A DNA stretch of 64,000 bases from an uncultured Gammaproteobacteria bacterium (GTDB lineage Bacteria > Patescibacteriota > Patescibacteriia > UBA9934): contig CAZKGL010000001.1 in the NCBI GenBank assembly GCA_964552565.1, forward strand, positions 499,061-563,060, written 5' to 3'. The stretch's first letter is position 1, and each line of letters starts with the position of its first letter. This document shows positions 614-49,469 of this stretch, piece by piece. The notes under the pieces are model-generated. The model was not told the origin of the DNA and did not search any database. It saw nothing but the letters and a program-made list of their open reading frames with translations. Made by a program: the position numbers and the translations under genes.

Positions 614-1746
614 CCGAAAAGCGCGAGGACGATGTTTGCAATGAAGACGAGCCCCGCGGACAACACGGCCCATCGCGGGACGAAGAGGGAGCGTTTCGCG
701 GTCTGCGGCTTTCGACGCAGTGTTTCGTAGGTCGCAATCAGGACGAGACCGGTGATGCCGATGAACACGCCGCCGGTGAAATCGATGACACCGATGAAAT
801 CGTCCGCGCCAACCATGACAAGGACCGGGGGGACGAACAGCGTCAGCGCCCAGGCCACCAGGTAGCGGAGACGGTAGTCGAACGCGTAGGTATTCGTCAT
901 GACCAGCGCGTGCGTCACGAACGCCGTCATGACCGTGCACATGCCGATCGCCGCGGCGATAAGCACGAATGCCGGGCCGAGCACGTCGGCGAGGCCGTGG
1001 ATCGTTTCCACCGAAGTCGCCTTCCCCGTCACGCCGACGACCGCAGTCACAAACACGAGGTAGAGGAGGCCGATAATGGCCATGCCGGCAAGGACGCTGC
1101 GCCGCAAGAGGTGCTTATGCCTGCCGAGCGCGTCGCGCATCTCGGGGACCGAGCCGAAGCCGGTGAACGCGAAAAGCGCAACGCCAAAGGGAAGGAAGAA
1201 CTTTTCCGGGTCGCCGGCGAGGGCGTAGTGGTCGATATCGATGTGCGGCGCGGCGAGGACGGCCAAGAGCGCCATGAGGCCGACGTAGGCGACAATGAGA
1301 TACTTCTGCAGCCGCGCGACGGTCGTCATGCCGCCGAACACGACAAGCGCGCCGAGGAAAAAGAACAGCGTGCGGTAGAACGCGACCGTCCCGCCGAGGA
1401 CCGGTGAGAACACTTGGTACGCGAAGCTGCCGCCGACGATGAGATACGCCGTCATGGCGCCGTACAGGCCGCCAAACAGGCCGACGGCCGCAAAGAACGC
1501 CCCGACGGGCCCCGCGTGCTCGCGAATAAGGCCGACGAAACGCGCGTGCCCTTTGGTGAGCACTGCCATGTCGGCGTACATGAGCACGGTAACCGCGCAG
1601 ACGACCGCGGAAAGCGCAAATGCCACCATGCCGACCCCAAACCCCGCCTGCGCGAAGACAAACGGCAAACCAAACATGCCTACGCCGACCACTTGCCCGA
1701 TCATCGGCCGCAGGCTCGCCCAAAACGCTTTTTTCGCATCCTCCAT
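610..1746 (-). CDS. APC-superfamily amino-acid transporter-like polytopic membrane protein
   Basis: 379 aa from internal Met MEDAKKAFWAS; ~11-12 hydrophobic helices; resembles Trp/Tyr-permease-type carriers; start uncertain. Confidence 0.55.
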   Translation of the reverse strand: MEDAKKAFWASLRPMIGQVVGVGMFGLPFVFAQAGFGVGMVAFALSAVVCAVTVLMYADMAVLTKGHARFVGLIREHAGPVGAFFAAVGLFGGLYGAMTAYLIVGGSFAYQVFSPVLGGTVAFYRTLFFFLGALVVFGGMTTVARLQKYLIVAYVGLMALLAVLAAPHIDIDHYALAGDPEKFFLPFGVALFAFTGFGSVPEMRDALGRHKHLLRRSVLAGMAIIGLLYLVFVTAVVGVTGKATSVETIHGLADVLGPAFVLIAAAIGMCTVMTAFVTHALVMTNTYAFDYRLRYLVAWALTLFVPPVLVMVGADDFIGVIDFTGGVFIGITGLVLIATYETLRRKPQTAKRSLFVPRWAVLSAGLVFIANIVLALFG

Positions 1747-1805
1747 ACCGCACCGATTATACCACGACGCTTTCCCCAGTCCGTCCACTTCCAGGCGCCA
1801 CCCCC

Positions 1806-3335
1806 ATGCGCTACGATGGCGGCGATATGTCGAGTGGAATGACGCGGGTCCCCCCGCACAATCTTGAAGCTGAGGAGTCGCTGCTCGGCGCAGTGCTTAT
1901 TGACCAGGAGACGCTGTTGAAAATCGGCGACCTGGTGAAGCCGGAGGATTTTTACAAGGACTCGCACCGCATCATCTTTGAAACGATGCTCGAACTTGCC
2001 GAACGCCACGACCCCATCGACATCCTGACCGTCGGCAACCGCTTGGAAGAAAAAAGCATCCTGAAGCAGGTCGGCGGGCGCACCGCGCTCGTCGAGCTGA
2101 CGAACACCGTGACGACGGCGGCGCACGTCGCGCACTACGCGGAGATCATCACGAAGAAAGCGCTCCTGCGGCGGCTGCTGCGCGCCGCGAGCGACATTAC
2201 CGAACTCGGCTACGACGAGACGCAGGACGCCGACCTCCTCATCGACGAGGCAGAGCAGAAGCTCTTTAACGTGTCGAGCAACGTCCATAAGACGAGTTTT
2301 GTCCCGCTGCGCTCGGTGCTGACGCAGGCGTTTGACCGGATCGACGAGCTGCACCGCGAGAAAGGCAAGCTGCGCGGCGTGCCGACCGGGTTCACCGGCC
2401 TCGACAACCTGCTGGCAGGCCTCCAGAAATCCGACCTCGTCATCCTCGCCGCCCGCCCGTCGGTCGGTAAAACGTCGTTCGCGCTCGACATCATGCGCTC
2501 GGTCGCGCTCCGCACCAAACAGCCGGTCGGGTTCTTCTCGCTCGAAATGAGCAAGGAACAGCTCGTCGACCGCCTCATTTGCGCCGAGGCCGGCGTCGAC
2601 CTCTGGAAGCTGCGCAACGGCCGCCTGTCCGACCACTCGGACGATTTTCCCCGCATCGGGGATGCGCTCGGCAAGCTCTCGGAGGCGCCGATTTACATTG
2701 ACGACTCGCCAATGGCGAACATTATGACCGTGCGCACGAAAGCGCGCCGCCTCCAGTCCGAACACGGCCTCTCGCTCATCGTCGTCGACTACTTGCAGCT
2801 CATGGAAGCGCGCAAGCAGACGGACAACCGCGTGCAAGAAGTCGCGGAGATTTCGCGCGGCTTGAAGCAGATCGCCCGCGAGCTCCAGGTGCCGGTCCTC
2901 GCCCTCGCGCAGCTCTCGCGTGCGGTAGAAAATGAAAAGCCGGCGATCCCGAAGCTTGCCCACCTCCGCGATTCGGGAAGCATCGAGCAGGACGCCGACG
3001 TCGTCATGTTCCTCTACCGCAAGGCCGCGGACCGCAACTACCAGCCCGACGAACTGACGCCCGAAGAAAAGAACGCGGCCGAAGTCCACGTCGCCAAGCA
3101 CCGCAACGGCCCGACGGGGATGGTAAAACTGTTCTGGGATGCGGCGCGCACGTCGTTCAAGAACCTCGACAAGGCGTATGGCGAGATGCCGGTGCCCATC
3201 GCCGCTGGCGGCGCCAAGCCTCCCGCGGATGCCACTGCCACCCTCCCCAGCCACCCTGCCACTCCGCCGGCAAACCCGAATGTCGGCCTGCCACCCGGCA
3301 TGCCGCCGAGGGGGTTTACACCGCCGCCACGGTAA
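1806..3335 (+). CDS. dnaB: replicative DNA helicase DnaB with Pro-rich C-terminal tail
   Basis: N-terminal LEAEESLLGAVL motif, Walker A ARPSVGKTSFAL, Walker B LIVVDYLQLM, RecA-like core; alternative starts 1827/1839. Confidence 0.9.
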   Translation: MRYDGGDMSSGMTRVPPHNLEAEESLLGAVLIDQETLLKIGDLVKPEDFYKDSHRIIFETMLELAERHDPIDILTVGNRLEEKSILKQVGGRTALVELTNTVTTAAHVAHYAEIITKKALLRRLLRAASDITELGYDETQDADLLIDEAEQKLFNVSSNVHKTSFVPLRSVLTQAFDRIDELHREKGKLRGVPTGFTGLDNLLAGLQKSDLVILAARPSVGKTSFALDIMRSVALRTKQPVGFFSLEMSKEQLVDRLICAEAGVDLWKLRNGRLSDHSDDFPRIGDALGKLSEAPIYIDDSPMANIMTVRTKARRLQSEHGLSLIVVDYLQLMEARKQTDNRVQEVAEISRGLKQIARELQVPVLALAQLSRAVENEKPAIPKLAHLRDSGSIEQDADVVMFLYRKAADRNYQPDELTPEEKNAAEVHVAKHRNGPTGMVKLFWDAARTSFKNLDKAYGEMPVPIAAGGAKPPADATATLPSHPATPPANPNVGLPPGMPPRGFTPPPR

Positions 3336-3413
3336 ATCCACACGCCGGATCCTGCTCGGCGTCACCCGGCGTTAGGTGACAAGCGCGCTTTTATTGGGTA
3401 ATATTGTCGCACT

Positions 3414-6836: not shown

Positions 6837-6875
6837 GCTCGCGACGGCGGGGCGCGGTGGCCCCGCCTATTGTCG

Positions 6876-7022
6876 GCCGGGTGACGCCGAAGGGACGAGC
6901 GGTGCGTCGTTGGGCGGAGACGTTTGCGCCCAGCCGCAGGCGACGCGTCGCCGCTACGGCGTAGCGCAACTGCGGAGCACAACGACGTACCCGAGTCCCG
7001 ACCGAAGCGGCAGGACCCGGCC
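6876..7022. repeat. family-A intergenic repeat, long copy (CCGGGTGACGCCGA...GGCGGCAGGACCCGGCC)
   Basis: shares 5' and 3' ~17-nt termini (imperfect inverted repeats) with copies at 15156-15246 and 41335-41428; lies between convergent genes. Confidence 0.6.
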
Positions 7023-7029: not shown

Positions 7030-7548
7030 TTAGTACAAAAACTGGAACGTCGCGAGCATGATACCGATCTCCTCGTCGGCGGCATCGTCGGTCACAATTG
7101 CAAACACGCGATCGTTGTACGACACGTAATACTCTTCGCGGCCGCTCAGGTGCGCGTATTTTATTGTCGGATACGCGGCAAACAAAAACTCGCTTTTCGT
7201 CACGCTGCCATCGCCGTCGAAGGTGGCGTCAATCGTCCCCAGCGCACGCGACTCTTCGCGCACGGTCAACTGCGTCTCTCCGTCGTCATCCACGATGGCA
7301 ACGCCGTCGTCGAGCGCCGCGACCGACCACGCGGCCGGATAGCCCATGCTCCACACGTCCGCGCCGTATGTCACCCACCCTTCATCAGGGAGTAACGCCG
7401 AGCGGAAGACGCGGTCGGACGCGGTTTCGCTCCTGGCGCGGGCGCCCTGGTCGCGACGGAGCACGACGAGCAGTACCGTAACGAACACGACGGCAACCAC
7501 AAGCGTCCCGATGGTCAGCCAGGACGGCAATTGGCGCAGATGGCGCAT
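7030..7548 (-). CDS. hypothetical membrane-anchored protein
   Basis: single N-terminal TM (LVVAVVFVTVLLVVL) then soluble domain. Confidence 0.4.
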   Translation of the reverse strand: MRHLRQLPSWLTIGTLVVAVVFVTVLLVVLRRDQGARARSETASDRVFRSALLPDEGWVTYGADVWSMGYPAAWSVAALDDGVAIVDDDGETQLTVREESRALGTIDATFDGDGSVTKSEFLFAAYPTIKYAHLSGREEYYVSYNDRVFAIVTDDAADEEIGIMLATFQFLY

Positions 7549-9995: not shown

Positions 9996-10559
9996 TTACC
10001 GTTTGGCCTTCAGCTGGTCAATAACCTCAAGAACGCGGGGTTTTGCCTGGCACCATGCGGCGACGGATTGCCCATCGGTGATTTCTCCCGCGTGGATCAT
10101 CCGGTCGACGTCATCGGGCGTCAGCAGCAGATGCTCGAACTCTTCCAGTTCATCCTGCTCCGATTCGATCGCCTGGAGGCCCCACGCAACGAAGATGTCC
10201 ATGGTCTCATTCACGATCCCGTTGCATGACGCGTGCTGGCCGACATGCTCAATATGGTCTGCGTGCATCTTCGCCTCTTCGGCAAATTCGCGGATCGCGG
10301 CGGGAAGCGGGTCTTGCCCTCCGCGCCCGCCCATTGGGAGCTCAATGCTCTCACGGGCAAAAAGCGGTCGGTATTGCTTTACCCACGGAATGGTTCCTTC
10401 AGCGGTGATCCCGATGACGCACGCACCACCAAGGCAATCACAAAAAAAGTAGTCGTGCTCCTTTCCCTTCGGTCCGATAAACCGCGCCTTGCAGTACTTC
10501 CAATACGGATTCTCGTGCAAAACCTCGACGGCAAGTTTTTTCCAGGGGGTCAGCGCCAT
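9996..10559 (-). CDS. NUDIX-family hydrolase
   Basis: Nudix-box-like GGRGGQDPLPAAIREFAEEAKM; start at MALTPWKK. Confidence 0.55.
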   Translation of the reverse strand: MALTPWKKLAVEVLHENPYWKYCKARFIGPKGKEHDYFFCDCLGGACVIGITAEGTIPWVKQYRPLFARESIELPMGGRGGQDPLPAAIREFAEEAKMHADHIEHVGQHASCNGIVNETMDIFVAWGLQAIESEQDELEEFEHLLLTPDDVDRMIHAGEITDGQSVAAWCQAKPRVLEVIDQLKAKR

Positions 10560-10560
10560 A

Positions 10561-10962
10561 CTACATGGCCGCACGAATCTTGTCGGCGACGGCCTTCAGC
10601 TCGTCTTGCGACGGGTGCGTCTTCACAAACGTGCGCTCCACGCCGTCCTTGCGCGGCATGATGTGCACATGGGTATGCATGACGTCCTGCCCGGCGGAAA
10701 GGCCGTGGTTCATGCCGAGGTTGTAGCCGCTGGCGCCAAGGCCGCGCATGATTGCCGGCGCGATCGCGTGCACGGTCGCCATGACCGCCACGGCGTCCTC
10801 GCGCGTCCCTTCGTTCAGGTTCGTCGCATGCGCCTTCGGCACGACAAGCGTATGGCCCTCGCTCACCGGGCCGATGTCGAGGAACGCGAAGGTCTTCTCG
10901 TCCTCGTACATCTTGTGGCACGGGATCTCGCCCGCGATGATCTTACAAAAGAGACAGTCCAT
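10561..10962 (-). CDS. HIT-family nucleotide hydrolase
   Basis: MDCLFCKIIAGEIP...HTHVHIMPR histidine triad. Confidence 0.85.
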   Translation of the reverse strand: MDCLFCKIIAGEIPCHKMYEDEKTFAFLDIGPVSEGHTLVVPKAHATNLNEGTREDAVAVMATVHAIAPAIMRGLGASGYNLGMNHGLSAGQDVMHTHVHIMPRKDGVERTFVKTHPSQDELKAVADKIRAAM

Positions 10963-14413: not shown

Positions 14414-14992
14414 TCAGAGCGAGTACGTGATGGCGGCGACCGCACCGAACATCGTCGCAACGACGAGAACGATTTCTGCGACGGTCACCAGTCCAGAGAT
14501 CTGGAACATGATGCCAAGGAGGAGCAGCGTCATCGAACAGAACTGGAGCAGCATTTTCGTCTTCCCCCACCCATTCGCCATCATGATTGCGCGGTCCCTC
14601 TTCGCGCGGGCAAGCCATGACGCCATCGGCAGGAGGTCGAACAGCACGGCAGCCAACACGACGACCGGATGGAAGAATTTGAAGGCAAGCACGATAATGA
14701 CGAGCCCGATAAGGAGCTTGTCCGCGATCGGGTCGAACAGGATGCCCCACGGCGTGATTTGTTTGCGGACGCGCGCAAGCGACCCGTCGACCGCGTCCGT
14801 GAATGCGGTCAAAATGAAGAGCGGGACGCCGTACAGCAAGTTCCCCGTCGCGAGCAAATACACCACGACCGGCGTCAGCGCCATGCGCAACACCGTCACA
14901 TGGTTGGGCTTCACGCTTTCGGGGATGAACGGCAGCACGACGGCCCGCATGAGGTAGTCGTGCGGAAACAGCTTTGAGGGATCGCGTCCCAT
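14414..14992 (-). CDS. CDP-alcohol phosphatidyltransferase family protein
   Basis: DAVDGSLAR...G..FDPIADK signature (D-G-x2-A-R...G-x3-D-x3-D). Confidence 0.75.
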   Translation of the reverse strand: MGRDPSKLFPHDYLMRAVVLPFIPESVKPNHVTVLRMALTPVVVYLLATGNLLYGVPLFILTAFTDAVDGSLARVRKQITPWGILFDPIADKLLIGLVIIVLAFKFFHPVVVLAAVLFDLLPMASWLARAKRDRAIMMANGWGKTKMLLQFCSMTLLLLGIMFQISGLVTVAEIVLVVATMFGAVAAITYSL

Positions 14993-15015
14993 AGTGCTAT
15001 CATCATAGCAGATTT

Positions 15016-16965
15016 ATGGAGAAACTCCCGCTCCGCGCCTTTCTCTTCGTCGGCCTTGTCGCAATCCTTGGCAGCCTCTTGTATTACGCGCTTCCCGTCA
15101 CGCGGTTCGGGATCGCTGTGGTCATTGCGCTCGCAGCCGTCGGCGCGTGGATGACGCCGGGTGACGCCGAGGGAGGCCCCCGATGGGCGCGCAGGGAGCG
15201 ACAGCGACTCGAGCACCCAGCGGGGTCCGAGGCGGCAGGACCCGGCGTACGCCTTGGCCGGGCTTCATACGCCCTCGCCGTCATCGTCGTCCTCGCGCTC
15301 GCCGCATGGTGGAGCGCCATCACCCCGCATGCGATCACCGAGGCGGTGCGCTCCCCGTGGGGCATCGTGCCGCCGTTCGCCGTGGCAGCGCTTGGCGTCG
15401 CATTCTTTGCATTGCTTGTGCTCCTGACGAACCCGCCGACGCGGCTTGCCATCACGCTCTGCGCGGCGACGCTGTTCTCCGCGCTCGCGATGGCCGCGGT
15501 CGTGTACCCGCTTGGCCTTGGCTTCGACCCGTTCCTCCACCGCGCCACCATGGCACACATCGCGGAGTTTGGCACGATCACCCCCAAACCCTTGTACTAC
15601 ATCGGCGAGTACGCGCTTGCGCTTGCGCCGCACCTCCTTCTTGGCGTCCCGCTTGCGCTCATTGACCGCCTGCTCCTTCCCCTCATGGCCGCGGTCATGC
15701 TGACAGGGAGCGCGGTCATGGGCCTTGCGCCACTTGCGCACCGGAAGAGCGCCATTGCGGTCGCCGCACTGCTGTTCCTCCCGCTTGGCGCATTCATCAC
15801 GACGACGCCGCAAGGCATTGCGTACGTCCTCGCCGCGAGCGCGGTGTTACTCTCGTTTGCAGCCATCAATCGTGTCGTCCCGTTCGTCCTCGCCGTCGCC
15901 GCGCTCCTCACACATCCGTTCGCCGGCATCCCGGTCGTCCTGTACGTCGTCGCGTCCGCGGTCGTCGCCCGCGCGGCGTCCCCCGCGCTCCGCACTGCTG
16001 CGCTCGTGGCAACCCTTATCGCGGGCGTCGTCGCCATCCCGGCGGTCTTCGCGCTGCAAGCGGCGCGCAGCGGCCTGTCGCTCTCCTTCCATCCTGGAAA
16101 CCTCTTCGACATCTCACGCTGGCAAGAACTGGCGCTCGGCGGATTCTTCGCGAACCACTTCTCGTTCGCATACGACGCCCTCTACCTCGCGCTCGACAAC
16201 CTGCTGTGGTTCACGATCGCCGCCGCGGTCGTCGGCTCCCTCGCGCTTCGCCATGACGCGCAGCGCCGCGCCAACGCCGCGCTGCCCGCCATCCTCGCGG
16301 TCGCGATGGCGAGCAACTTCATCGCGCTCTCCATCCTGTTCGACTTCGACTTCCTCATTTCCTACGAACGCAGCGACTATGCGCTCCGCTCGCTCATGAT
16401 GACGCACATCTTCCTCCTGCCGCTTGCGGGCGCCGGCATCGCGTCGGTTGCACACCGCTTGCGGGAAAAGCCGCTCGTGCTGCGCGGCGCGTTCCTTGCC
16501 GCGCTCGCCGTCATCGGCATGGGCAACGTCTACGGCGCATATCCGCGCCACGACAACTATGCGCGGAGCGCGGGGTTCAATGTGAGCAAGGCGGATTTTG
16601 ACGCGGTAGACGCTATCGACGACAAAGCGGAAGGCGAGGACTATATCGTGCTTTCCAACCAGGCCACTGCCGCAGCCGCGGTCGAGGCATACGGCTTCAA
16701 GAAGTACTACCACGGCGACATCTTTTACTACCCCATCCCGACGGGCGGCGTCATGTACCAGCACTTCCTGACCATGGTCGACGAAGGCCCGACGCGCGAG
16801 ACGATGGACGCGGCGATGGACGTCGCGGGCGTCAACCTCGGGTTCTTTGCGGTGAGCGACTACTGGTGGCAGTCCGAACAGCTTATTGAAAACGCGAAAC
16901 GCATCGCGGACGACTGGTTCTCCGTCGGCGACGGGAGCGTGACCGTCTTCATCTTCCGGCAGTAA
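15016..16965 (+). CDS. large polytopic membrane protein (>=14 TM) with in-frame family-A repeat insertion
   Basis: 649-aa ORF; residues ~46-78 (TPGDAEGGPRWARRERQRLEHPAGSEAAGPGVRLG) are the translation of repeat copy B; real start could lie downstream of the repeat. Confidence 0.5.
   Translation: MEKLPLRAFLFVGLVAILGSLLYYALPVTRFGIAVVIALAAVGAWMTPGDAEGGPRWARRERQRLEHPAGSEAAGPGVRLGRASYALAVIVVLALAAWWSAITPHAITEAVRSPWGIVPPFAVAALGVAFFALLVLLTNPPTRLAITLCAATLFSALAMAAVVYPLGLGFDPFLHRATMAHIAEFGTITPKPLYYIGEYALALAPHLLLGVPLALIDRLLLPLMAAVMLTGSAVMGLAPLAHRKSAIAVAALLFLPLGAFITTTPQGIAYVLAASAVLLSFAAINRVVPFVLAVAALLTHPFAGIPVVLYVVASAVVARAASPALRTAALVATLIAGVVAIPAVFALQAARSGLSLSFHPGNLFDISRWQELALGGFFANHFSFAYDALYLALDNLLWFTIAAAVVGSLALRHDAQRRANAALPAILAVAMASNFIALSILFDFDFLISYERSDYALRSLMMTHIFLLPLAGAGIASVAHRLREKPLVLRGAFLAALAVIGMGNVYGAYPRHDNYARSAGFNVSKADFDAVDAIDDKAEGEDYIVLSNQATAAAAVEAYGFKKYYHGDIFYYPIPTGGVMYQHFLTMVDEGPTRETMDAAMDVAGVNLGFFAVSDYWWQSEQLIENAKRIADDWFSVGDGSVTVFIFRQ
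15156..15246. repeat. family-A repeat, copy B (in frame inside ORF 15016-16965)
   Basis: CCGGGTGACGCCGAGGGAGGCCCCC...GAGCACCCAGCGGGGTCCGAGGCGGCAGGACCCGGC; ~80% identical to copy at 41335-41428. Confidence 0.65.
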
Positions 16966-17650: not shown

Positions 17651-17655
17651 TATTT

Positions 17656-17683
17656 GGAAGCTGAGCTTCGAAGCTCAGCTTCC
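17656..17683. repeat. REP element, 28-nt perfect palindrome GGAAGCTGAGCTTCGAAGCTCAGCTTCC (5' flank of RAYT)
   Basis: self-complementary; near-identical copies at 18442 and 49442. Confidence 0.8.
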
Positions 17684-17787
17684 AAGTTGTGGATACTTTT
17701 CTGAGATCGCTTGACGGGGGTCTTTGCATTTGAAAAACTGAAACTATCACTCCCCTCGCTCAAGGCGCGGGGCGTTTTATTTCGCGC

Positions 17788-18555
17788 GTGACTGAGAATA
17801 TGCGAAATGAACAGTTCACCATCGGCGGGTATTACCATATTTATAACCGCGGTGTAGACAAGAGGGATGTTTTTTGCGATCCAGATGATTATGAACGATT
17901 CGTTCGCTCGTTCATCTATCTCAATACGATGCCAACGCATGCATTCCCGCCAATCGCGCAGCTTACAACTCGACCTAACAATCAAGGCCACATCCATGTT
18001 CGCATCATGGCCTACGCGCTCATGCCAAACCATTTTCACTTCCTTATCGAACAAATAGGGGAGTTCGGGGTGACTGAATTCATGCATCGGCTTGGAACGA
18101 GTTACACAAAATATTTTAATCGCCGCTACGACAGATCTGGAAGGTTGTTTGAAAGTGAGTACAAAGTGGTTCCGATACAATCAGATGCGCATCTCTACCA
18201 CATCTCGCGATACATCCATCTGAACCCCCTTTCACTCTCCCCCGCCTCGCACAAACTAAAACGCTGTGCTGAAGACTGGAAACGGGCCGAGGAATTTCTT
18301 CTGCGGTATCCCTGGTCGAGCTACCGCAGCTATGTCGATCGGTGCACCGATGAAGTCAATCCTGACATGATATGGGACATGTTCTGTGGATCGACTGACT
18401 ACCGAGCATACATGCGCGAATGGTATTTATCTCCACAGTTCGGAAGCTCAGCTTCGAAGCTGAGCTTCCGACCGGGCATGGGGCAATTTTTGCCAAATAA
18501 CCGCTACAACTTGCAAAGAAACGACTTTTCTGCCTATCCTATGGCACCGTCCTAG
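17788..18555 (+). CDS. REP-associated tyrosine transposase (RAYT; IS200/IS605 TnpA-like Y1 HuH)
   Basis: HuH motif MPNHFHFLIE, catalytic Tyr motif SRYIHLNP, REP palindromes flanking; ORF reads through REP2 to 18555. Confidence 0.75.
   Translation: MTENMRNEQFTIGGYYHIYNRGVDKRDVFCDPDDYERFVRSFIYLNTMPTHAFPPIAQLTTRPNNQGHIHVRIMAYALMPNHFHFLIEQIGEFGVTEFMHRLGTSYTKYFNRRYDRSGRLFESEYKVVPIQSDAHLYHISRYIHLNPLSLSPASHKLKRCAEDWKRAEEFLLRYPWSSYRSYVDRCTDEVNPDMIWDMFCGSTDYRAYMREWYLSPQFGSSASKLSFRPGMGQFLPNNRYNLQRNDFSAYPMAPS
18442..18469. repeat. REP element GGAAGCTCAGCTTCGAAGCTGAGCTTCC (3' side of RAYT, inside its ORF)
   Basis: perfect palindrome, 2-nt variant of REP1 (central G/C swap). Confidence 0.8.
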
Positions 18556-29751: not shown

Positions 29752-30054
29752 TTATGCAATCGCAAGTTCTAACGGCTTCACCTGTCGCTTAATCGCTTTT
29801 CCAGAGGCCTTTTGTTCTACAAGAAGATCGTACCGCGACTGTAAATTGAGCCAAAACTCTGCAGAGGTACCAAAATATTCAGACAACCGGAGCGCGGTAT
29901 CCGCAGTCACTGCACGGTCGCCATGCACGATTTCGTTAATCCTTCGGCGTGGCACGCCAATATCGTTCGCGAGTTTATATTGGGTAATTCCCATCGGCTT
30001 CAAAAACTCCTCTTCCAGAATTTCTCCCGGGTGGATAAACATTGCCTCACTCAT
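29752..30054 (-). CDS. higA: HigA-family XRE-HTH antitoxin
   Basis: HPGEILEEEFLKPMGITQYKLANDIGVPRRRINEIVHGDRAVTADTALRLSEYFGTSAEFWLNLQSRYDL is the canonical HigA signature. Confidence 0.8.
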   Translation of the reverse strand: MSEAMFIHPGEILEEEFLKPMGITQYKLANDIGVPRRRINEIVHGDRAVTADTALRLSEYFGTSAEFWLNLQSRYDLLVEQKASGKAIKRQVKPLELAIA

Positions 30055-30092
30055 ACCAATTTTTTTACTCGTCGCGAATTACTCTAATGATA

Positions 30093-30827
30093 CTACATAT
30101 CAAGCCGGGCGATTTCCTGAGTATACGCACAGAATTCACAATCTTCCGCCGCCTTCGGGATCTTCGATGAACGCAAACACGTGCGCATGGCCATGAGTGC
30201 GCCGTCGACCCACGAGTCGTCGCCTTTGTACTTCAACAACTTCACTTTGAATTCCAGCCTCCCGTCGAATGCCGCGAGATCGGTGCGACCGTTGACGTAG
30301 ACGAAGTATCCAGTGTCCGACACCCTGAATCCGTTCCTGCGGAGCAGCCACTGGTACACCTCCATCTGGCGCTTGTAGCCCATTTGCCATTCGCTATCGA
30401 GGTTTACCTCGCCGTCTTTGCTCGTCGCTTTGTAATCGACGACGATGAGCTCGCCCTTTTTGTTCACCCAGATGTCATCGACCGCGCCGGTCACGAGGAA
30501 CCCGCTCCTCGTGTGCACAAACTGCACGCCCTTAAAATTCTCCCGCCACACGTCCATGAGCTCGTGCGAAAACGGTACGGCGTTCACCTTGTACTCCGCC
30601 ATGAGCGGGTGCGCGGTCTTCGCGACGCGATGCACGTCGAACTCCTTCTTGAGGAGCGCATCAACGGCCTTGTTCAAGTTGAACGGCGGCCCACTCGGCC
30701 TCCCAATCCCCAAGCGCCTATCCAAATAAAAGCACCGCTTACAATCGATGAACAACTCAATCTTCGACCTACTCACCTTGTACGGCGTCTTCGCCTTGGG
30801 GTCGTAGAGATTCCGCGTGCGGGGCAT
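30093..30827 (-). CDS. Cas4/RecB-like PD-(D/E)XK nuclease with 4-Cys (Fe-S) cluster
   Basis: N-terminal CxxC (CKRC), motif III VVDYK, QxxxY (QMEVYQ), C-terminal CEFC; start at MPRTRNLY. Confidence 0.65.
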   Translation of the reverse strand: MPRTRNLYDPKAKTPYKVSRSKIELFIDCKRCFYLDRRLGIGRPSGPPFNLNKAVDALLKKEFDVHRVAKTAHPLMAEYKVNAVPFSHELMDVWRENFKGVQFVHTRSGFLVTGAVDDIWVNKKGELIVVDYKATSKDGEVNLDSEWQMGYKRQMEVYQWLLRRNGFRVSDTGYFVYVNGRTDLAAFDGRLEFKVKLLKYKGDDSWVDGALMAMRTCLRSSKIPKAAEDCEFCAYTQEIARLDM

Positions 30828-30899
30828 ACATTTGGTTAAGCCCAAGATGAAACTCATGCGGGCATGCTGACGAGTCTTAGACCTCCGAGGAACGTCAAA

Positions 30900-31124
30900 T
30901 TATTGATCTAATTGGATCTCCCACCTGTCCTCCTGAGAAAGTTTATATTCGTCCATGATCTCGTTGAGCTTTCGGGCGATCTCGTGACGGCGCATCAGTT
31001 TTTCTGGGTCAATATGGTTGAACACTATAGGCACACCGGGAACCATGTCACGGGCAGACATAGCTGTTTCACGTTTCAGTGTCTTCCATTCTTGGAGAAT
31101 TTGATCAAATTGCTGCTGATCCAT
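30900..31124 (-). CDS. hypothetical 74-aa protein downstream of res
   Basis: 10 nt after res stop; low-G+C codon usage like the island. Confidence 0.4.
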   Translation of the reverse strand: MDQQQFDQILQEWKTLKRETAMSARDMVPGVPIVFNHIDPEKLMRRHEIARKLNEIMDEYKLSQEDRWEIQLDQ

Positions 31125-31133
31125 ATTGGCATG

Positions 31134-33812
31134 CTAGTCATGGTTTACAAAGGCCCTAATACACTCAGCGAAAGTCTTTGGACGAAACTTTTCCCACTCC
31201 TCCTGCTTCACGTATAGCATTTTGTATTCTGTTCCCGCCTTTAGATTGTTTACATCGTCACACCACTGCCGAAGCCGTGCGATCTTCCGCGAATCGTCGA
31301 GATCCTCCCTGCCCTTCGTCTCGATAATATAGACTGTGTCATCTGCCAGCTTCACGAAAAAGTCCGGATAATAATAGGCGATGCTCCCGTCCGCATTCTT
31401 ATAATCGATACGGAATTGGACTTCGTAATAGTTTTTTGCGAATGAAACCACATCCTCACAATCATCGAGAAATTTTCCGAATTCGAGTTCAAGATGGCTA
31501 TCGCCAACAATCTTGTTGAAGACGCTCTTCTTTGGAGTGATGTATTCGTTCTTATCACTAACAAACGGCCGGGCTTGGCTGATCTTGATGTAGTTACGTA
31601 CTTCCGCCTCTCCTTTATCAATAACGGTAAGATCATTGATTGCCTTTTTGAAGGTCTCCTCAATGGTCCTACGCGCTTCAATTTCCGATAGGTTACGGAC
31701 TAGGTTAGAGTCCTCAAGATCGACCGTTTGACCAAAGAGACGGTCGCACACAAAATCTCGTACTAATGGGAACAGCTGATCAAAGCCACTGACCATGCGA
31801 AGTTCACGCATGATGCCCTGCGTGTAGAATCCGATGGCATTTCGCCAGTCGGGCATTACACCTTCTGGAAGCTCAACGATGTGATCAGTTTCCCCGGTTA
31901 CAATTTTCTTGAAGACTATTTCGCGTTGCTCTTGCGCGGTGAATTGCTTGTATTCTACCGGCCTAAACTCTAGATGAGTAACATCAATGTCAGAGATGTT
32001 TTTATATTCTCGAAAAATACGTGGAGACAGGACAGGAAGTTGAATATCGAGCTTCTCAATATCCTTCTTAAGATTTTCATGATCGATCTCAACGATGACC
32101 GGCGCAACGGCGCTTGAATCCCTGTCCATTCGCCGCGTCTGCAGTTCCACACCCTCTGCCTTAATCGACTCAACGAAATCCATGAACGCGGGGGTGCCGA
32201 TAACGCTGACGTATTCCTCAACTCCTCTACCGAAGTACATGAGCCGCAAACCGCGACCAAGCGTTTGCTCAGGAAGGATGTTGCTTTTTGACGCGAACGC
32301 GCGAAGGCCAACGATCGTGGTCACGTTTCGTACGTCCCAGCCCTCTTTCAACATGAGAACCGAAACGACAGCAAGATACGGGCTCTCAAAGCTATCTAGT
32401 TCATTCGATTCCCGACGGAGTTTATCGAGCTCCTCTTTATCCTTATGCTGAATGGTCTCCTTAATTTCGCCAGAGCGATTTGTGTGAATCGTTAATATCT
32501 TCCCTGCGAGTTCTGGGAAGTTTTGCTCGAGGTGCTGAGCGACCGCGTCACAGTTCGTGGTGTCATCAGTCATGACGAAGAGTACCGCTTTTTTTCCAGT
32601 CTTCAGGTGCTGCTCGTATGCTTTACGCCATTCGATAACACCGAGGTGGAGATATTCGCGGTAGCGCTCAATAAAGTTACTACTCTCAACCTCGTTGAGC
32701 TTCGCACGACTCGCCTGGTCCGGAAGAACCGGATGTTTTACGACGTTTTGATGGATCGCCTCAACAAGAGGATAATCGCAGACGGTTTGCACGAAGATCT
32801 CGCCACGCTCATTCTTCGGCGTTGCGGTAACGTCGATCTGCAATGACAACGCACGACCTTTCATCTTCAGGCGGTTTGAGATGTCTTCAATTGATTTAAA
32901 CCATGCGAGCTTCTCGTCGTGAATATGATGCGCCTCATCGTTGAGAACCATGAGCTCATCTACCTCACGCACAATGTCACCGAGATCAACGCCCGAGTTG
33001 GTCGTTTTCGTAACAGGACGGTCTCCCAAAAAATAATCAGTCGTGTTTTCATCCTCAAAAGTCGCCGCCTGGACGTCGCGATCGTACACACGATGAATGT
33101 TCGTCAGGAAGATATTTCCACTCGGAGAGACACCGCTCACTTCGTCCTGCAGGTGCACCGTAACCTGAAAATCATCCTGCCAGTTTTGCCCCTCGTAGCC
33201 ATTATCAGGAAGAATGGGATCGCCAAAGAAAATCTTGCATCCCTCAAAGTCTCCTTTGATGCGATCCAAAACGATGATGTTGGGTGCAATCAACAAAAAG
33301 TTCTTCGACATCAACGAATCCGGTTCGTAAATGCGATGGAAGTAACTCCATGCAATAAGCAGGCTCAACACTTTTGTCTTGCCCGCGCCCGTCGCAAGTT
33401 TCAAAACAAAACGCGGCCAGGCTTCCTTAAACATGCTTCCCGACACACGGCCCGAACTGTCGTACCGCAACAGGTCATGTGGAGCCCGTGCGCCGGCGAC
33501 TTCATAAAGGTAAATCGCTGTCTCTACAGCTTCACGCTGAGCAAAGTAATACCTGAATGTCTTTGCAACGCCATCAACCCAATCGACATGATCTTCAAGA
33601 AACCACCAACGCAGGAGCGCACGAGTCGTCGGACTCGCGCCTTTGTAATCGTTATCGCGCCACTCCTTCACCAACTTTCGCACCTCAGGCACGAGCGGCG
33701 GCATGAGTTTCTCCCACTTCGATTCTCGCAACGCCTCATCAGCCGGAAACCATCGGGTTTTCGGATCGAGGATTGCGTAGGGATCTTTTGGGAAACCAGG
33801 ATGGAGGGCCAT
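31134..33812 (-). CDS. res: type III restriction enzyme Res subunit (SF2 helicase + C-terminal PD-(D/E)XK)
   Basis: motif I LATGAGKTKV, motif II LNDEAHH, C-terminal nuclease PDFFV...YIIETKG. Confidence 0.85.
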   Translation of the reverse strand: MALHPGFPKDPYAILDPKTRWFPADEALRESKWEKLMPPLVPEVRKLVKEWRDNDYKGASPTTRALLRWWFLEDHVDWVDGVAKTFRYYFAQREAVETAIYLYEVAGARAPHDLLRYDSSGRVSGSMFKEAWPRFVLKLATGAGKTKVLSLLIAWSYFHRIYEPDSLMSKNFLLIAPNIIVLDRIKGDFEGCKIFFGDPILPDNGYEGQNWQDDFQVTVHLQDEVSGVSPSGNIFLTNIHRVYDRDVQAATFEDENTTDYFLGDRPVTKTTNSGVDLGDIVREVDELMVLNDEAHHIHDEKLAWFKSIEDISNRLKMKGRALSLQIDVTATPKNERGEIFVQTVCDYPLVEAIHQNVVKHPVLPDQASRAKLNEVESSNFIERYREYLHLGVIEWRKAYEQHLKTGKKAVLFVMTDDTTNCDAVAQHLEQNFPELAGKILTIHTNRSGEIKETIQHKDKEELDKLRRESNELDSFESPYLAVVSVLMLKEGWDVRNVTTIVGLRAFASKSNILPEQTLGRGLRLMYFGRGVEEYVSVIGTPAFMDFVESIKAEGVELQTRRMDRDSSAVAPVIVEIDHENLKKDIEKLDIQLPVLSPRIFREYKNISDIDVTHLEFRPVEYKQFTAQEQREIVFKKIVTGETDHIVELPEGVMPDWRNAIGFYTQGIMRELRMVSGFDQLFPLVRDFVCDRLFGQTVDLEDSNLVRNLSEIEARRTIEETFKKAINDLTVIDKGEAEVRNYIKISQARPFVSDKNEYITPKKSVFNKIVGDSHLELEFGKFLDDCEDVVSFAKNYYEVQFRIDYKNADGSIAYYYPDFFVKLADDTVYIIETKGREDLDDSRKIARLRQWCDDVNNLKAGTEYKMLYVKQEEWEKFRPKTFAECIRAFVNHD

Positions 33813-33814
33813 AG

Positions 33815-34108
33815 CTAGATGTCAAGTAATCTTGTCTGGAGATCATAAATTTCATCTTCCAGCTCTCTTCGTAACTCAGTTATTTCTGATGATTGATTGA
33901 TATGCGCAAACATAACGTCTATAGCAGCCAATCCGACAGTAAAGACGAATGCAACAACAACACCAATGATTATTTGCATGCTCAAATTTTTCTGATCTTT
34001 TAACTCTTCTTTTAGCGTAGCGAATTCTATGTAAAAAACCGATTCTGCTATCGCCTGGTCCAGCGGTACAAACCCCTTCAGTTCATCGTCAATAACGTGT
34101 CGTGGCAT
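33815..34108 (-). CDS. small single-TM coiled-coil protein between mod and res
   Basis: 97 aa; TM IIIGVVVAFVFTVGLAAIDVMFA; start overlaps upstream stop, stop 3 nt before res start. Confidence 0.5.
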   Translation of the reverse strand: MPRHVIDDELKGFVPLDQAIAESVFYIEFATLKEELKDQKNLSMQIIIGVVVAFVFTVGLAAIDVMFAHINQSSEITELRRELEDEIYDLQTRLLDI

Positions 34109-34109
34109 A

Positions 34110-34331
34110 TTAAATCTTCAGAAAGCCCTTAATCTCAACCACGCCACCGTGTTCTTCAGCTGCGATATCTAAGTTTTTATATCGATGAAAATCCACACCA
34201 GCGAACGCGACACCTGGACCAAACGTAAAGCCTGGACCAAATTCGATGCCGCTTACCTTGATCCTGAGTTTCGGAGTCAGGCTGCCGTCTGGCAAAATAT
34301 CAAATACCTCTCTGAAGCTGTATCTTTTCAT
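34110..34331 (-). CDS. small Gly-rich 73-aa protein between mod and res
   Basis: tightly coupled (5-nt gap after mod stop); GIEFGPGFTFGPGVAFAGVDF. Confidence 0.45.
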   Translation of the reverse strand: MKRYSFREVFDILPDGSLTPKLRIKVSGIEFGPGFTFGPGVAFAGVDFHRYKNLDIAAEEHGGVVEIKGFLKI

Positions 34332-34336
34332 AGTTC

Positions 34337-36619
34337 CTAGATCATTATCTCAACAACTCTGGTGGTATCGTTCCCAAAAATGTCGATTACTTTCACTGCG
34401 ACCTTACGCCGACCCGGCACGCACTGTACTGCAACTGATGTTAATTCAAGCTCGCGATCTTTACGAGTGCGGAAAGATTGCCATTCGTTTTCGAAAATAT
34501 ACTGGCCAGTCCATTCTTCGTCATAGTCAACCTTTGTCGCCTGCTCGAGTTCTACGGAGCCGTCAAGCATGATTTGTTTTGCCACCACGTCTTCCGCAGT
34601 GCGTACGATCTCTTTCTTGCTTTCGTAATTGAAGTCGACAGCCCAATAATCGATCCAGTCAGTCCATTTACCCGTCATTATTTCACGTGTGATAATTTCT
34701 GTTTGCTTATCTTTAGTCAACTTAATGAGATTGCCATCCTGCAAAACGATCTTCGATCCCCCACCCTTGATGTTTTCTTCGATTTCCGCGAGATCGTCTT
34801 GGTTGTAAAAAACCTTAAAATTCGCAAGCTCTATAGCGAGCTTATTCTTCTTTACAATCGGATTCACCTCAACGAACGCGAGATCGTAGAATTTCACCTG
34901 TCCGCGCTCAACGGCGCGCTTGTCGAAAACTTCGTTCGGAATCGTTTTAAACTGAAGGTCGATGCCATTGTTTTTTGCGACATCGGCATCCATGCCCATT
35001 TCCCAGCCAAAGCCGAGGACGTCCGCTTTCGTTATACCTTTTTCACGACATTCTGCGATTACCGACTCAACGAGCGAATGCGAGACTGGAAACTCGATCG
35101 GACCAATAGCAACAAGCCGATCGCGCTTCTTTCCAACAAAATTTCTGAAACCGTTTACCGGCTCAGCCTTATATGCTGAGAGAATAAGTGACCTAAAGTC
35201 ATCTTCTTTTTTACGGCGTAGCTGCTCCTTTTCTTCCGCTCGCAAGTCACCATCGACGTTTACAAATTGCTTGCGTTCGTATTTACCAAGGTTGAGAATT
35301 TCAAACGCACGATACGACTGACCCTCTTTCTTCAACTGTCGTTGCACTGCAATCATTCGCTTACGAGATGCGTGAATGCCGAAGCGTCCAAGGTCACTGC
35401 CAATCCATTTACGGTCCAACTTTTCAGAAACAGCTAAAGTCGTCCCTGAGCCGATGAAAAAATCAGCGACAATGTCTCCGTTGTTCGTTGAGGCTTGGAT
35501 AATTCGTTCAAGAAGAGCACTGGGCTTCTGAGTCGGATAGCCAGTATCTTCAACTCCGCGCACCATCGGAATGTCACTCCATAAATTTTGAACGATCATT
35601 CCCGGCCACTCATCCAAGAATTCCTTACGATAAATCAAAGAACCATTTTCTGGAAAATATAGCCTACCCTCCTCATCCCACTTACACATTTTTTCCTTAG
35701 TGACTGCCCATCCGTTTTTTGGTGGCTTCCTTCCTTTGTATTCATACCGTAGCGTCGGTCGTGGTGCCGGATTCGCCATGTTATTAATTCTGTATCGCCG
35801 ACCGCCCTCGTCAATTTTATTAAAAATATCTAACAGCTCATCGGTATTATCACTTTTGTTAAATTGTTCATTGAAAATAAACTGCTCACTTTTGGAATAG
35901 AAAAGTATGGTGTCGGTCTGAGTGCGAAAACTTCCTGCGATGCTAGTTCCACCGGTTCGTCGTTTCCAAATTATCTCCGATTGGAAATTTTCAGAACCGA
36001 ATATTTCATCAAGGATCAACCTCATGTAGGAATTCACTCGCCAATCACAGTGAACATAAATCGAGCCGTTATCGGCAAGTAAATCGTGCATGAGCCTTAA
36101 TCGCTCGTAAATCATCGAAATAAAGCTATCCGCTCCTCTTCCCCACGTATCACGATAGGCTACCTCCTCGATGATGCTCGGTTTTTTTGTAAACTCCTCC
36201 CCACCAATCTCAATGTTCATCGAAAAATCTGCACCGACATCGAATGGTGGATCGATGTAGATCAGCTTAATGCCACCTTGGGCTTCGATTTCCTTCCGCA
36301 AAGGGCCATTCTTGAGTGCAGAGAGAATCAGCTTATTGTCTCCCCAGATAAGTTTATTCGTCCAGCCCTTAGCCTGCCGACCAGAAAGATCAAAAAGATT
36401 CTGCTGCAACTTCACTTCTCGCTCACTGCGGGGCTCGTCGATATGTTCGATTGACTGAAACGGGAGCACGACGTTCATAACCTCGTCGGTCTTGCCGTTC
36501 CAAACCAACTCAACCTGGCGATTATCGCCAAACAGTAAAAACCGATATTTGTCCGGCAAGGGTTTCCCTTGCTCGAGCATCCTCGTGATATCGCGAATTT
36601 CGTTCGGTTGAAGCTGCAT
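34337..36619 (-). CDS. mod: type III R-M Mod subunit (N6-adenine DNA methyltransferase, 760 aa)
   Basis: DPPF motif IV (LIYIDPPFDVG), AdoMet motif I region, large C-terminal extension. Confidence 0.85.
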   Translation of the reverse strand: MQLQPNEIRDITRMLEQGKPLPDKYRFLLFGDNRQVELVWNGKTDEVMNVVLPFQSIEHIDEPRSEREVKLQQNLFDLSGRQAKGWTNKLIWGDNKLILSALKNGPLRKEIEAQGGIKLIYIDPPFDVGADFSMNIEIGGEEFTKKPSIIEEVAYRDTWGRGADSFISMIYERLRLMHDLLADNGSIYVHCDWRVNSYMRLILDEIFGSENFQSEIIWKRRTGGTSIAGSFRTQTDTILFYSKSEQFIFNEQFNKSDNTDELLDIFNKIDEGGRRYRINNMANPAPRPTLRYEYKGRKPPKNGWAVTKEKMCKWDEEGRLYFPENGSLIYRKEFLDEWPGMIVQNLWSDIPMVRGVEDTGYPTQKPSALLERIIQASTNNGDIVADFFIGSGTTLAVSEKLDRKWIGSDLGRFGIHASRKRMIAVQRQLKKEGQSYRAFEILNLGKYERKQFVNVDGDLRAEEKEQLRRKKEDDFRSLILSAYKAEPVNGFRNFVGKKRDRLVAIGPIEFPVSHSLVESVIAECREKGITKADVLGFGWEMGMDADVAKNNGIDLQFKTIPNEVFDKRAVERGQVKFYDLAFVEVNPIVKKNKLAIELANFKVFYNQDDLAEIEENIKGGGSKIVLQDGNLIKLTKDKQTEIITREIMTGKWTDWIDYWAVDFNYESKKEIVRTAEDVVAKQIMLDGSVELEQATKVDYDEEWTGQYIFENEWQSFRTRKDRELELTSVAVQCVPGRRKVAVKVIDIFGNDTTRVVEIMI

Positions 36620-36623
36620 ATAC

Positions 36624-37358
36624 TTATTTCAGGAGATCCCAGGCAACCAAGTAAGAGGTGACGTCGTGTTCCATATTCCCAAGGTACACCTTCCCATCGC
36701 GAATTTTAATGTTTACGCGATAGCGTGTGCCGTTGCTGACAGGAAGTATAGCGCGTTCACGCACCTTTTGCTCAATGACGTGATATGGAAGAACTACGAA
36801 CTTCGTGGCCTCTTCTCCATGCAAAACAAAGACGTAATACACGTTCCCCGAGCCGTGACGATCAAAAGAAACCTTGCGGATATCGAAGACAAAGATGTTA
36901 AACCGATTGATGTTCGACGTCTTCACCTGGATGCCGAACAGCTTGTTGTCCTTGGTCGCGATGATATCTAAGCCAGTATCGACGCTCATGATGCTGGCGT
37001 TATAGCCAAGAAACAAAAGCTCGGCACAAACCGCATGCTCACCAGCCTTACCCGTACAGCCGCTGTCGATCGCAAGTTTTTCAACAATTGCTTTCTCTGC
37101 TGGCGTTTCTGGCGTCTCTTCCACCTTTTCGACCGTCTGGTTGCCACTCAAGTCATACACGCCGGGACCAACACGCTTAAACGCTGAATGCTTTTTCTTT
37201 GCATCAGTGGAAAGCCGCGCACTCATTGTCATTTCTGGCGTCGCTCCGTTCGTCTCCAAGAGGCCCCACTCGAGCGCAAGCTCGGTAATGCGCGCATAGT
37301 GAAGTGGTTCCCCCGCGCGCTTTAGCACTTCGGCTGCTGCCTGCTTAAAGGAGTTCAT
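36624..37358 (-). CDS. HARE-HTH domain fused to PD-(D/E)XK-like nuclease domain
   Basis: N-terminal FKQAAAEVLKRAGEPLHYARITELALEWGL (HARE-HTH), C-terminal E...D(TGLDII)...IQVK; start at MNSFKQ. Confidence 0.55.
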   Translation of the reverse strand: MNSFKQAAAEVLKRAGEPLHYARITELALEWGLLETNGATPEMTMSARLSTDAKKKHSAFKRVGPGVYDLSGNQTVEKVEETPETPAEKAIVEKLAIDSGCTGKAGEHAVCAELLFLGYNASIMSVDTGLDIIATKDNKLFGIQVKTSNINRFNIFVFDIRKVSFDRHGSGNVYYVFVLHGEEATKFVVLPYHVIEQKVRERAILPVSNGTRYRVNIKIRDGKVYLGNMEHDVTSYLVAWDLLK

Positions 37359-37360
37359 AT

Positions 37361-37786
37361 CTACGAGTTGAAGGGCAAGCCCGCACCGTCCTCGAGTTTC
37401 CCATCCCACCCCTCCGCCCTCTTTTGCACGTCCGCAAAACACACTTCGTCGTGCTCACCTTCTTTTTTGTCACACTCCTTTGCATGGTCGCGTTCGGCCA
37501 AGCGTTCGGCAAGGAGCGGCCAGAATTCGTCCTCGGCAACCGCGTGGAGCGCCGCGTCTGCGTCGTCGAAGAACGCGTCGGTCCAATGGTCCTCGTCCTG
37601 CGTATCCGGGGGAAACGTCATGCCGAAGTCTTCCGCGCGATCCATGAGTTGTTCCCACAGCTCCGCAAGCTCTTCGTCGAGCTTGTCGCCGCGCAGCCGC
37701 GCGACGTGTTCGTCAAGCACGATCGCCGCCGCAACTGCGCGCGTGAGAGACAAATAGTGTTTTGTGTGTAGTGTCAAATCAGCCAT
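37361..37786 (-). CDS. highly acidic 141-aa protein (candidate DNA-mimic/regulator)
   Basis: ~27% Asp+Glu, start MADLTLHTKHY; stop abuts start of HARE-HTH nuclease gene; higher G+C than neighbours. Confidence 0.45.
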   Translation of the reverse strand: MADLTLHTKHYLSLTRAVAAAIVLDEHVARLRGDKLDEELAELWEQLMDRAEDFGMTFPPDTQDEDHWTDAFFDDADAALHAVAEDEFWPLLAERLAERDHAKECDKKEGEHDEVCFADVQKRAEGWDGKLEDGAGLPFNS

Positions 37787-37913
37787 AGAGCAGGTCGAGC
37801 GTATCCCTTTTTCCCCATCTGTACAATCCTTGACAACCCTCCCTTTTGTGCTATGCTCGGGTTGTGTCACCACGAAAAGACCCCCTGCAGGTTCCGTCCT
37901 GCCGGGGTGCTTT

Positions 37914-41325: not shown

Positions 41326-41334
41326 CATGAGGGG

Positions 41335-41428
41335 CCGGGTGACGCCGAGCAGGTCCCCTGCTTGGGCGCGCAGACGAGTCCGACGAGTCGAGCACCCAAC
41401 AGGGTGCGAAGGCGGCAGGACCCGGCCG
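41335..41428. repeat. family-A repeat, copy A (fills cls-mazG intergenic gap)
   Basis: GCCGGGTGACGCCGAGCAGGTCCCCTGCTTGGGCGCGCAG...GAGCACCCAACAGGGTGCGAAGGCGGCAGGACCCGGCC. Confidence 0.65.
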
Positions 41429-49319: not shown

Positions 49320-49441
49320 GTCATCCCCCCCAGGCAGGCACACGTCCCGCCACCTCATCCATGGCATACCGGAGGGGAATGTCAAGGAATCCTGCAAAAT
49401 GCGATGAAAACAAAAAAATACGCACGCCATCCCGAGCACTC

Positions 49442-49469
49442 GGAAGCTCAGCTTCGAAGCTGAGCTTCC
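49442..49469. repeat. orphan REP element GGAAGCTCAGCTTCGAAGCTGAGCTTCC
   Basis: identical to REP2; intergenic between DUF2231 gene stop and lipoprotein start. Confidence 0.8.

Follow-up and report, generated by a model that had tools for sequence, protein, structure and literature searches.

The DNA analysed here, a 64,000-nt stretch of contig CAZKGL010000001.1 from an uncultured bacterium of the Patescibacteriota (the window in what follows), carries a hairpin repeat within the gene of a polytopic membrane protein conserved in Patescibacteria. As the original prediction had it, the repeat lies 140 nt into the open reading frame (ORF) at 15016-16965, in frame and with no stop codon. The host protein has 137 homologues, all of them from Patescibacteria/Uhrbacteria-like metagenome bins, and matched no Pfam or NCBIfam family. 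Its AlphaFold2 model has a mean predicted local distance difference test score (pLDDT) of 91.5 and a predicted template modelling score (pTM) of 0.93. The best matches of the model among solved structures are STT3 oligosaccharyltransferase subunits; these are weak (E = 4e-3, template modelling score 0.35-0.40), and the modelled fold weakly suggests a GT-C-like (STT3-type) glycosyltransferase-like enzyme.

Residues 1-46 of the host protein, which hold the first two transmembrane helices (TM1 and TM2), align in its 14 closest orthologues, with R7, G19, S20, Y23, Y24, V28 and T29 invariant. In two relatives (loci L126 and L127) the gene order is a CDP-alcohol phosphatidyltransferase gene on the opposite strand, the host gene and a gene for an Rce1-like protease. 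The divergent phosphatidyltransferase gene begins 23 nt upstream of the host start in the window and 9 nt upstream in L127, and a promoter-like site is found in front of the host gene (Table 1). Because the N-terminal residues are conserved, the gene order is kept and the promoter-like site is in place, the start at 15016 is, as judged from sequence, genuine, and the element lies inside the coding sequence.

Within the ORF the element reads as the peptide TPGDAEGGPRWARRERQRLEHPAGSEAAGPGV. A second forward frame through the element is also open (two of the three), so the absence of a stop codon is weak evidence on its own. The element begins at codon 47, directly after TM2, and sits between two predicted transmembrane helices, as had been proposed: AlphaFold2 places helices at residues 4-25, 30-46 and 82-102, with pLDDT of 57-69 over residues 51-80, the element region. 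From the order of the helices, the TM2-TM3 loop would lie on the N-terminal side of the membrane, probably in the cytoplasm. The segment is absent from the 14 close orthologues and from all 63 aligned homologues in a 64-sequence alignment. The element-coded residues 55-66 are matched in only 1-21 of the 63 others and residues 72-78 in two, and the stretch from Y24 to W98 is the longest of the 64 (75 aa against a median of 58). Since it is missing from every homologue, the segment is, on this alignment, a lineage-specific insertion tolerated by the protein.

In one orthologue (P0009, ~56% identical) the TM2-TM3 loop likewise contains a perfect hairpin, TTGTCATCCCGAG…CTCGGGATGACAA, unrelated to the present repeat, which lies in frame (about 3151-3220 of L126) and encodes …SSREAQRRGTPSMRSLVTLGMTK…; P0008, a close relative of P0009, is without this hairpin. 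Because an unrelated in-frame hairpin occupies the same place in P0009, the loop is evidently permissive, having accepted two different hairpin repeats independently.

Our preferred reading, to which we assign a probability of roughly 0.8, is that a dispersed hairpin repeat was inserted in frame into a permissive loop and is tolerated there. A dispersed hairpin repeat resembling repetitive extragenic palindromic (REP) sequences or MITEs (transposable elements of the miniature inverted-repeat kind) would have inserted into the loop-coding part between TM helices 2 and 3, where the protein is poorly conserved. The event would have kept the frame and brought in no stop codon, adding ~31 tolerated residues rich in Arg, Glu, Gly and Pro. 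This corresponds to the first of three possibilities offered by the original prediction, a tolerated MITE-like insertion creating a charged loop, which is borne out by the conservation of residues 1-46 and by the 63 homologues that lack the segment. The tryptic peptide LEHPAGSEAAGPGVR is the predicted product that would report translation through the element, and a 64-aa chimera containing the element-encoded peptide shared no words with the protein database.

A TGACGCC duplication had been pointed out at the 5′ edge of the element as a possible trace of the insertion. The duplication is indeed present, with TGACGCC(G), TGACGCCG, occurring at 15152-15159 and again at 15162-15169, and it does not stand as a target-site duplication. 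Its first occurrence is the outer stem of the element itself, in which ACGCCGG pairs with CCGGCGT at 15242-15248, and the ACGCCGGGTGACGCCG start is also present in the short copy at 3342-3372. A target-site duplication was therefore rejected in favour of an outer stem that resembles the inner stem and is part of the element. ACGCC also flanks the element on its 3′ side, a flank that the other copies do not have, and no consistent target duplication was found in the flanks of the four window copies.

Two points weigh against a tolerated insertion in its simplest form. Measured against the family median, the net gain in length is only 17 aa although the element has 31 codons, so that some of the former loop may have been replaced. 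Deleting the element together with the putative 5-nt ACGCC duplication (95 nt) fails to restore the frame, and a one-step model therefore needs other boundaries or a second indel.

The window holds, besides the intragenic copy, two full intergenic copies and one short derivative (Table 1). The 5′ end CCGGGTGACGCCGA is exact in all of them (at 15157, 41335 and 6877 on the forward strand and 3356-3369 on the reverse strand), and the 3′ end GGCGGCAGGACCCGG recurs at 15231 and 41411 and, with one mismatch, at 7006. The two-ended pattern gives three matches in the window against none expected in shuffles. The original prediction had a 91-nt element common to the intragenic copy and the intergenic copies at 41335 and 6876; this holds for the former, which is 78% identical to the intragenic copy over 101 aligned columns, but not for the latter, which has only the two ends in common with the other full copies. 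Each of the three full copies folds as a single long hairpin (−57.3, −54.8 and −89.2 kcal/mol, with z-scores against shuffles of −4.2, −3.9 and −5.5). In the short derivative the whole interior was apparently lost by deletion between two GCAGG repeats. No intrinsic terminator (GC-rich hairpin with U tract) was found at any of the three full copies on either strand, nor were consensus promoters or U-tract terminators found at the window copies, and the flanks are not rich in A or T; in view of these absent consensus sites, roles of the repeat as terminator or as a promoter of its own were rejected.

Table 1. Host gene, repeat copies and their parts, in window positions
Feature	Position	Strand	Remarks
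Host gene	15016-16965	+	649-aa polytopic membrane protein conserved in Patescibacteria
Sigma-70-like promoter match	14974-15003	+	TTGAGG-18-TATCAT, with TG; just upstream of ATG 15016; consensus match only
Intragenic hairpin-repeat copy (95 nt)	15154-15248	+	Codons 47-78 of ORF 15016-16965
Outer stem P1, intragenic copy	15154-15162 and 15240-15248		ACGCCGGGT pairs with ACCCGGCGT
Asymmetric internal loop, intragenic copy	15163-15164 and 15235-15239		GA opposite GCAGG
Inner stem P2, intragenic copy	15165-15168 and 15231-15234		CGCC pairs with GGCG
Apex, intragenic copy			GCGCAG-(hairpin)-GAGCAC
Intergenic full copy (95 nt)	41333-41427	+	Hairpin repeat; 3′ end 2 nt from stop codon of convergent gene 41430-42707
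PLD-like/cardiolipin-synthase-like gene	41430-42707	-	Convergent to the copy at 41333-41427
Intergenic copy (148 nt)	6875-7022	+	Same ends, longer and different interior; between convergent genes; gap of 7 nt between its 3′ end and the stop codon of 7030-7548
Unassigned gene next to the 148-nt copy	7030-7548	-	
Short 31-nt derivative	3342-3372	-	ACGCCGGGTGACGCCGAGCAGGATCCGGCGT; 6 nt past dnaB stop
dnaB	1620-3335	+	

Among the alternatives, the one that survives best, though we consider it unlikely, is that the gene has come to use the hairpin as a cis-acting mRNA structure. In this role it might slow ribosomes once TM1-2 have been made, and so aid co-translational membrane targeting, or it might regulate expression, and it would be kept by selection. 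The intragenic hairpin is intact (−57 kcal/mol, z = −4.2) although the copy is 22% diverged from its nearest partner, compensatory changes are seen (CCCCCG/CGGGG against CCCCTG/CAGGG), and the position directly after TM2 would suit such a role; however, all 63 homologues function without the element, and the intergenic copies keep their hairpins equally well, so that hairpin integrity is a property of the family and not of this gene. Removal of the element from the mRNA, in the manner of an intron or a bypassed segment that is never translated, seems very unlikely. No ribozyme or intron family match was found in Rfam, most copies are intergenic, and all three copies within ORFs keep an open frame, something for which removal would leave no need; these observations outweigh the compact and conserved structure of the element and the fact that the 93-nt span CGCCGGG…CCCGGCG (15155-15247) is a multiple of three, whose exact removal keeps the frame.

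The second possibility raised originally, translation from a start downstream of the element, which would turn the element into a 5′ leader and the upstream frame into an accident, is contradicted by the conserved N-terminus and gene order and is more improbable still. Long accidental open frames do arise in GC-rich DNA, and two of the three forward frames through the element are open; yet residues 1-46 align to all orthologues with their invariant positions, helices 4-25 and 30-46 are modelled at pLDDT 88-98, the divergent gene arrangement fixes the start within ~23 nt, no ATG precedes residue 158, and a start at the only in-frame GTG nearby would cost the protein TM1-TM3. Least credible is the remaining suggestion of a programmed hypervariable loop (retroelement template or phase variation) with the other copies as templates, which found no support: loop length and sequence vary among orthologues, but the copies differ by indels and compensatory paired stem changes rather than adenine-confined substitutions and give no hint of templated diversification, no tandem repeats were seen, the other copies occupy ordinary 3′ intergenic positions beside housekeeping genes (dnaB, PLD-like), and the family extends to unrelated genes and to more than one phylum.

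The preferred reading, insertion of a dispersed repeat, leads on to the repeat family itself. A stricter pattern scanned over species-representative genomes returned three true copies, two in an 'uncultured delta proteobacterium' metagenome-assembled genome (MAG) and one in a 70%-GC MAG. A looser pattern, GGGTGACGCCG … CGGCAGGACCC, scanned over metagenome contigs, returned at least 120 matches; among the matches listed, to which the family figures given below also refer, at least 110 are genuine hairpin copies, on contigs of 45-72% GC, with a core-to-core length of 83-142 nt (median 101) plus the outer stem. A gap-free mini-hairpin alignment with explicit pair counts was used in place of MAFFT plus RNAalifold, which on whole elements recovered the basal stems only because the interiors do not align. 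The core GGGU-GA-CGCCG … CGGCG-GCAGG-ACCC is identical in these metagenome copies, at least 110 in number. Beyond the 22 required bases, covariation extends to eight positions outside the core on each side and three inside. Of the flanking-stem cells, 82.3% are paired; shuffling gives 66.8%, with none of 500 shuffles as high as the observed figure, and sliding the partners gives 31-45%. Double-sided changes in the flanking stems number 256 where 118 are expected.

The architecture supported by this alignment is a predicted hairpin with an outer stem P1 (…GGGU/ACCC…), an internal loop with 5′-GA opposite 5′-GCAGG, an inner stem P2 (CGCCGnnn/nnnCGGCG) and a variable apex. The apical parts fall into several types, and the third position of the window-type apex (Table 1) covaries with the GCCCGCAG/GAGGAC variant. 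A first pairing register with a 3x3 loop (GAC opposite AGG) was rejected, as only the GA/GCAGG register gives covarying P2 extensions. A kink-turn (K-turn) requires an A at position 2b; the G found there led us, on our own reasoning, to reject this reading of the loop.

Searches for a known counterpart were negative. Rfam 15 gave no gathering-threshold match in the window or in 20 loci, and with E values of up to 10 allowed, the surroundings of the copies and another 13 loci gave chance-level matches only. In full texts the core motif, taken from either strand and spelled as DNA or as RNA, turned up only in primers and aptamers; a keyword literature search on Patescibacteria repeats returned nothing relevant, and BLAST of three family members against plasmids chance matches only; a scan of viral contigs gave one match, probably by chance. 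A repeat family with this invariant internal loop, present in more than one phylum, appears to be undescribed. A phmmer search of the window and 127 loci with a consensus query, a weak test, brought up no transposase or RAYT-like (REP-associated tyrosine transposase) gene. Clustering of the neighbouring proteins gave no recurrent family in ~110 loci, and no larger element bounded by the motif was seen in a scan covering short gaps between the motif halves.

The context of the copies is read as trends, since the metagenome gene calls are crude (made from GC content at third codon positions, GC3, only). Among the matches listed, copies are mostly intergenic, with convergent surroundings enriched (42%) and divergent ones depleted (10%). 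In 52 of 114 cases a convergent gene has its stop codon no more than 60 nt from the …CAGGACCC (3′) end, whereas for a co-directional gene and the GGGTGACG (5′) end the figure is only 19 of 114. The GGGTGACG… strand folds better than its complement in 90 of 111 copies, and in 79 of 111 when the interior alone is folded (p = 2.6e-7); the flanking DNA has negative GC skew on the GGGTGACG strand at 50 of 77 loci. The strand that folds better also tends to be the C-rich one, and it usually runs antisense to the gene at whose stop codon the element lies.

In L019, L058, L089 and L091 copies are nested or partial, a more degenerate outer copy bearing an intact one at its apex; insertion into the tips of hairpins would be expected to give such an arrangement. 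L095, L105, L033, L065 and L028 likewise hold nested or tandem partial copies. In a single case a group II intron (Rfam D1-D4 models) was seen near a family copy, at 2811-3127 on the reverse strand of L065 and ~400 nt away; hairpins are the targets of some bacterial group II introns.

Two further copies lie inside open frames. The copy at 629-742 of L120 is in frame within the gene of a TIGR04282/DUF2064 enzyme, and deleting its 39 element-coded residues merges two hidden Markov model (HMM) stretches into one match over profile positions 1-189. The copy in L090, on the reverse strand (10470-10561 in the oriented sequence), is found 1.6 kb from the start of a 4.1-kb open frame within 49%-GC DNA; VIARSPKGDEAIS…IASLTTIARND, encoded by the same frame, has the look of another palindromic repeat in translation. 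The three ORF-borne copies share one orientation relative to the host gene, the minority orientation beside stop codons, which with n = 3 is suggestive at most.

The presence and absence of the element among orthologues, the nesting, the scattered and unrelated sites and the same core in unrelated hosts point to mobility of the family. Recognition of one single strand, by analogy with REP/RAYT, IS200/IS605 and attC, is suggested by the asymmetry between the strands, by the loop with its fixed asymmetry and by the polarity. The family would spread as a non-autonomous mobile element whose single-stranded hairpin is read by an enzyme encoded elsewhere, as with REP/RAYT and IS200/IS605. Its usual home would be just past stop codons, and the intragenic copy would be a rare survivor owing to a permissive loop, an open frame and the minority orientation. 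A role at the RNA level, such as 3′-end protection or processing, is possible.

As a tentative proposal, with the odds somewhat against it, the family may form an undescribed class of 85-165-nt hairpin elements that occurs in more than one phylum and is occasionally translated in frame. Such a class would be marked by the invariant basal module GGGU-GA-CGCCG/CGGCG-GCAGG-ACCC, a 2x5 internal loop, with interchangeable apical domains; its members would nest in each other's apex, lie against stop codons with fixed polarity and favour one strand. If this is true, a widely conserved protein should recognise the loop, either a single-strand DNA transposase or recombinase or an RNA-binding factor, and the family would be a new hairpin-borne mobile element or a new class of structured RNA. 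Identifying the protein that reads the loop could reveal a new mobilisation or RNA-protein system. For the host gene, the insertion implies that a reduced Patescibacteria genome can gain ~31 membrane-loop residues in one step, and the second, unrelated hairpin in the loop of an orthologue implies that such loops take up selfish DNA repeatedly. Annotators should neither move the start of ORF 15016-16965 downstream nor label this ORF a pseudogene.

Around the host gene, between 12807 and 17650, a conserved cluster unites it with genes for a PMT_2-like membrane protein, the CDP-alcohol phosphatidyltransferase and an Rce1/CPBP protease; together with the weak STT3 (GT-C) fold this suggests a cell-envelope glycoconjugate pathway. 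Elsewhere in the window, 32-nt perfect palindromes TCGGAAGCTCAGCTTCGAAGCTGAGCTTCCGA are identical at two distant sites (18440-18471 and 49440-49471), and a variant of them lies right after the stop codon of the Rce1-like gene (17654-17685); they are either a second hairpin repeat family or shared terminators. A low-GC island at ~30000-38000 (45-52% against 62-65% elsewhere), with two large minus-strand ORFs at 31134-33821 and 34337-36628, may have been horizontally acquired. A 44-nt direct repeat, 89% identical, occurs at 61868-61911 and 63487-63530, 1.6 kb apart.

Compared with known systems, the family does not belong with attC sites, intrinsic terminators or any Rfam family, and probably not with classical MITEs. 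It resembles attC in its conserved basal stem with an unpaired asymmetric spacer, its variable apex, its size (~60-150 nt) and its place just past a stop codon with fixed polarity, the better-folding strand being antisense to the upstream gene. Unlike attC, it has no RYYYAAC/GTTRRRY core, its basal stem being …GGGT/ACCC… with no AAC/GTT, and it forms no cassette arrays, the window copies lying 3-26 kb apart. With housekeeping genes (dnaB, PLD-like) as neighbours, a reading as attC sites or cassettes was rejected. Bacterial MITEs (Correia, ERIC, QMITE, Chunjie) are short non-autonomous hairpin repeats which can fuse in frame (PMC10969869). For the present family, in contrast, no consistent target duplication, parent insertion sequence or symmetric terminal inverted repeats were found; its arms are imperfect inverted repeats with a fixed asymmetry, and its outer stem evolves by compensatory change, an indication that the hairpin itself, and not two transposase-binding ends, is conserved.

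With REPs the family has in common that its GC-rich hairpins are extragenic and for the most part placed near stop codons, where the flanking genes are convergent or co-directional (here 42% convergent, with a stop codon within 60 nt in 52 of 114 and gaps of 2, 7 and 6 nt in the window), that G·T wobbles favour one strand, and that dimers and clusters occur. REP/REPIN elements are mobilised by a cognate RAYT, a Y1 HUH transposase whose gene is flanked by the repeats. The E. coli REP has a 7-bp stem, a purine mismatch and a 4-bp GC stem, and the architecture of the family resembles it. A REP is a palindromic unit of 20-40 bp with an unpaired GTAG or CGTC tag, and intragenic REP/REPIN copies can encode 20-30 aa (PMC3733652). 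The present family differs by its single hairpin of 85-165 nt, only the derivative at 3342-3372 being REP-sized, by the fixed GA versus GCAGG asymmetry between its arms, and by a core that is identical across very different genomes, REPs being usually lineage-specific. Among the matches listed, 3 of 110 copies have GTAGC in front of the core and 7 of 110 have TAGC, which no window copy has, and CGTC on the complementary strand lies inside the core, half paired. Judged by its size and by a GTAG tag in 3 of the 110 listed copies, the family falls outside the GTAG/CGTC REP superfamilies.

Rickettsia palindromic elements (RPEs) were reportedly found in frame inside unrelated genes by Ogata et al. 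in 2000. They are the known example of in-gene palindromic repeats inserted in frame and translated as tolerated extra surface or loop peptides (PMC10969869; PMC3733652). Like RPEs, the copies described here are palindromic repeats of ~100-150 bp found both between genes and inside unrelated coding genes, with in-frame copies in the window ORF, L120 and L090 whose translation we infer. The family is set apart by another host phylum and apparently another sequence, by its occurrence in more than one phylum, and by an invariant asymmetric internal loop where RPEs have a conserved peptide; copies inside ORFs are also rare here (one of four in the window, roughly 3 of 110 elsewhere among the matches listed). 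In-frame insertion of palindromic repeats is thus already known from Rickettsia and REPs, and the repeat family is the more interesting lead. Functionally, the phenomenon is of the RPE or intragenic-REP kind, in which in-frame repeats encode 20-30 or more residues (PMC3733652, PMC10969869).

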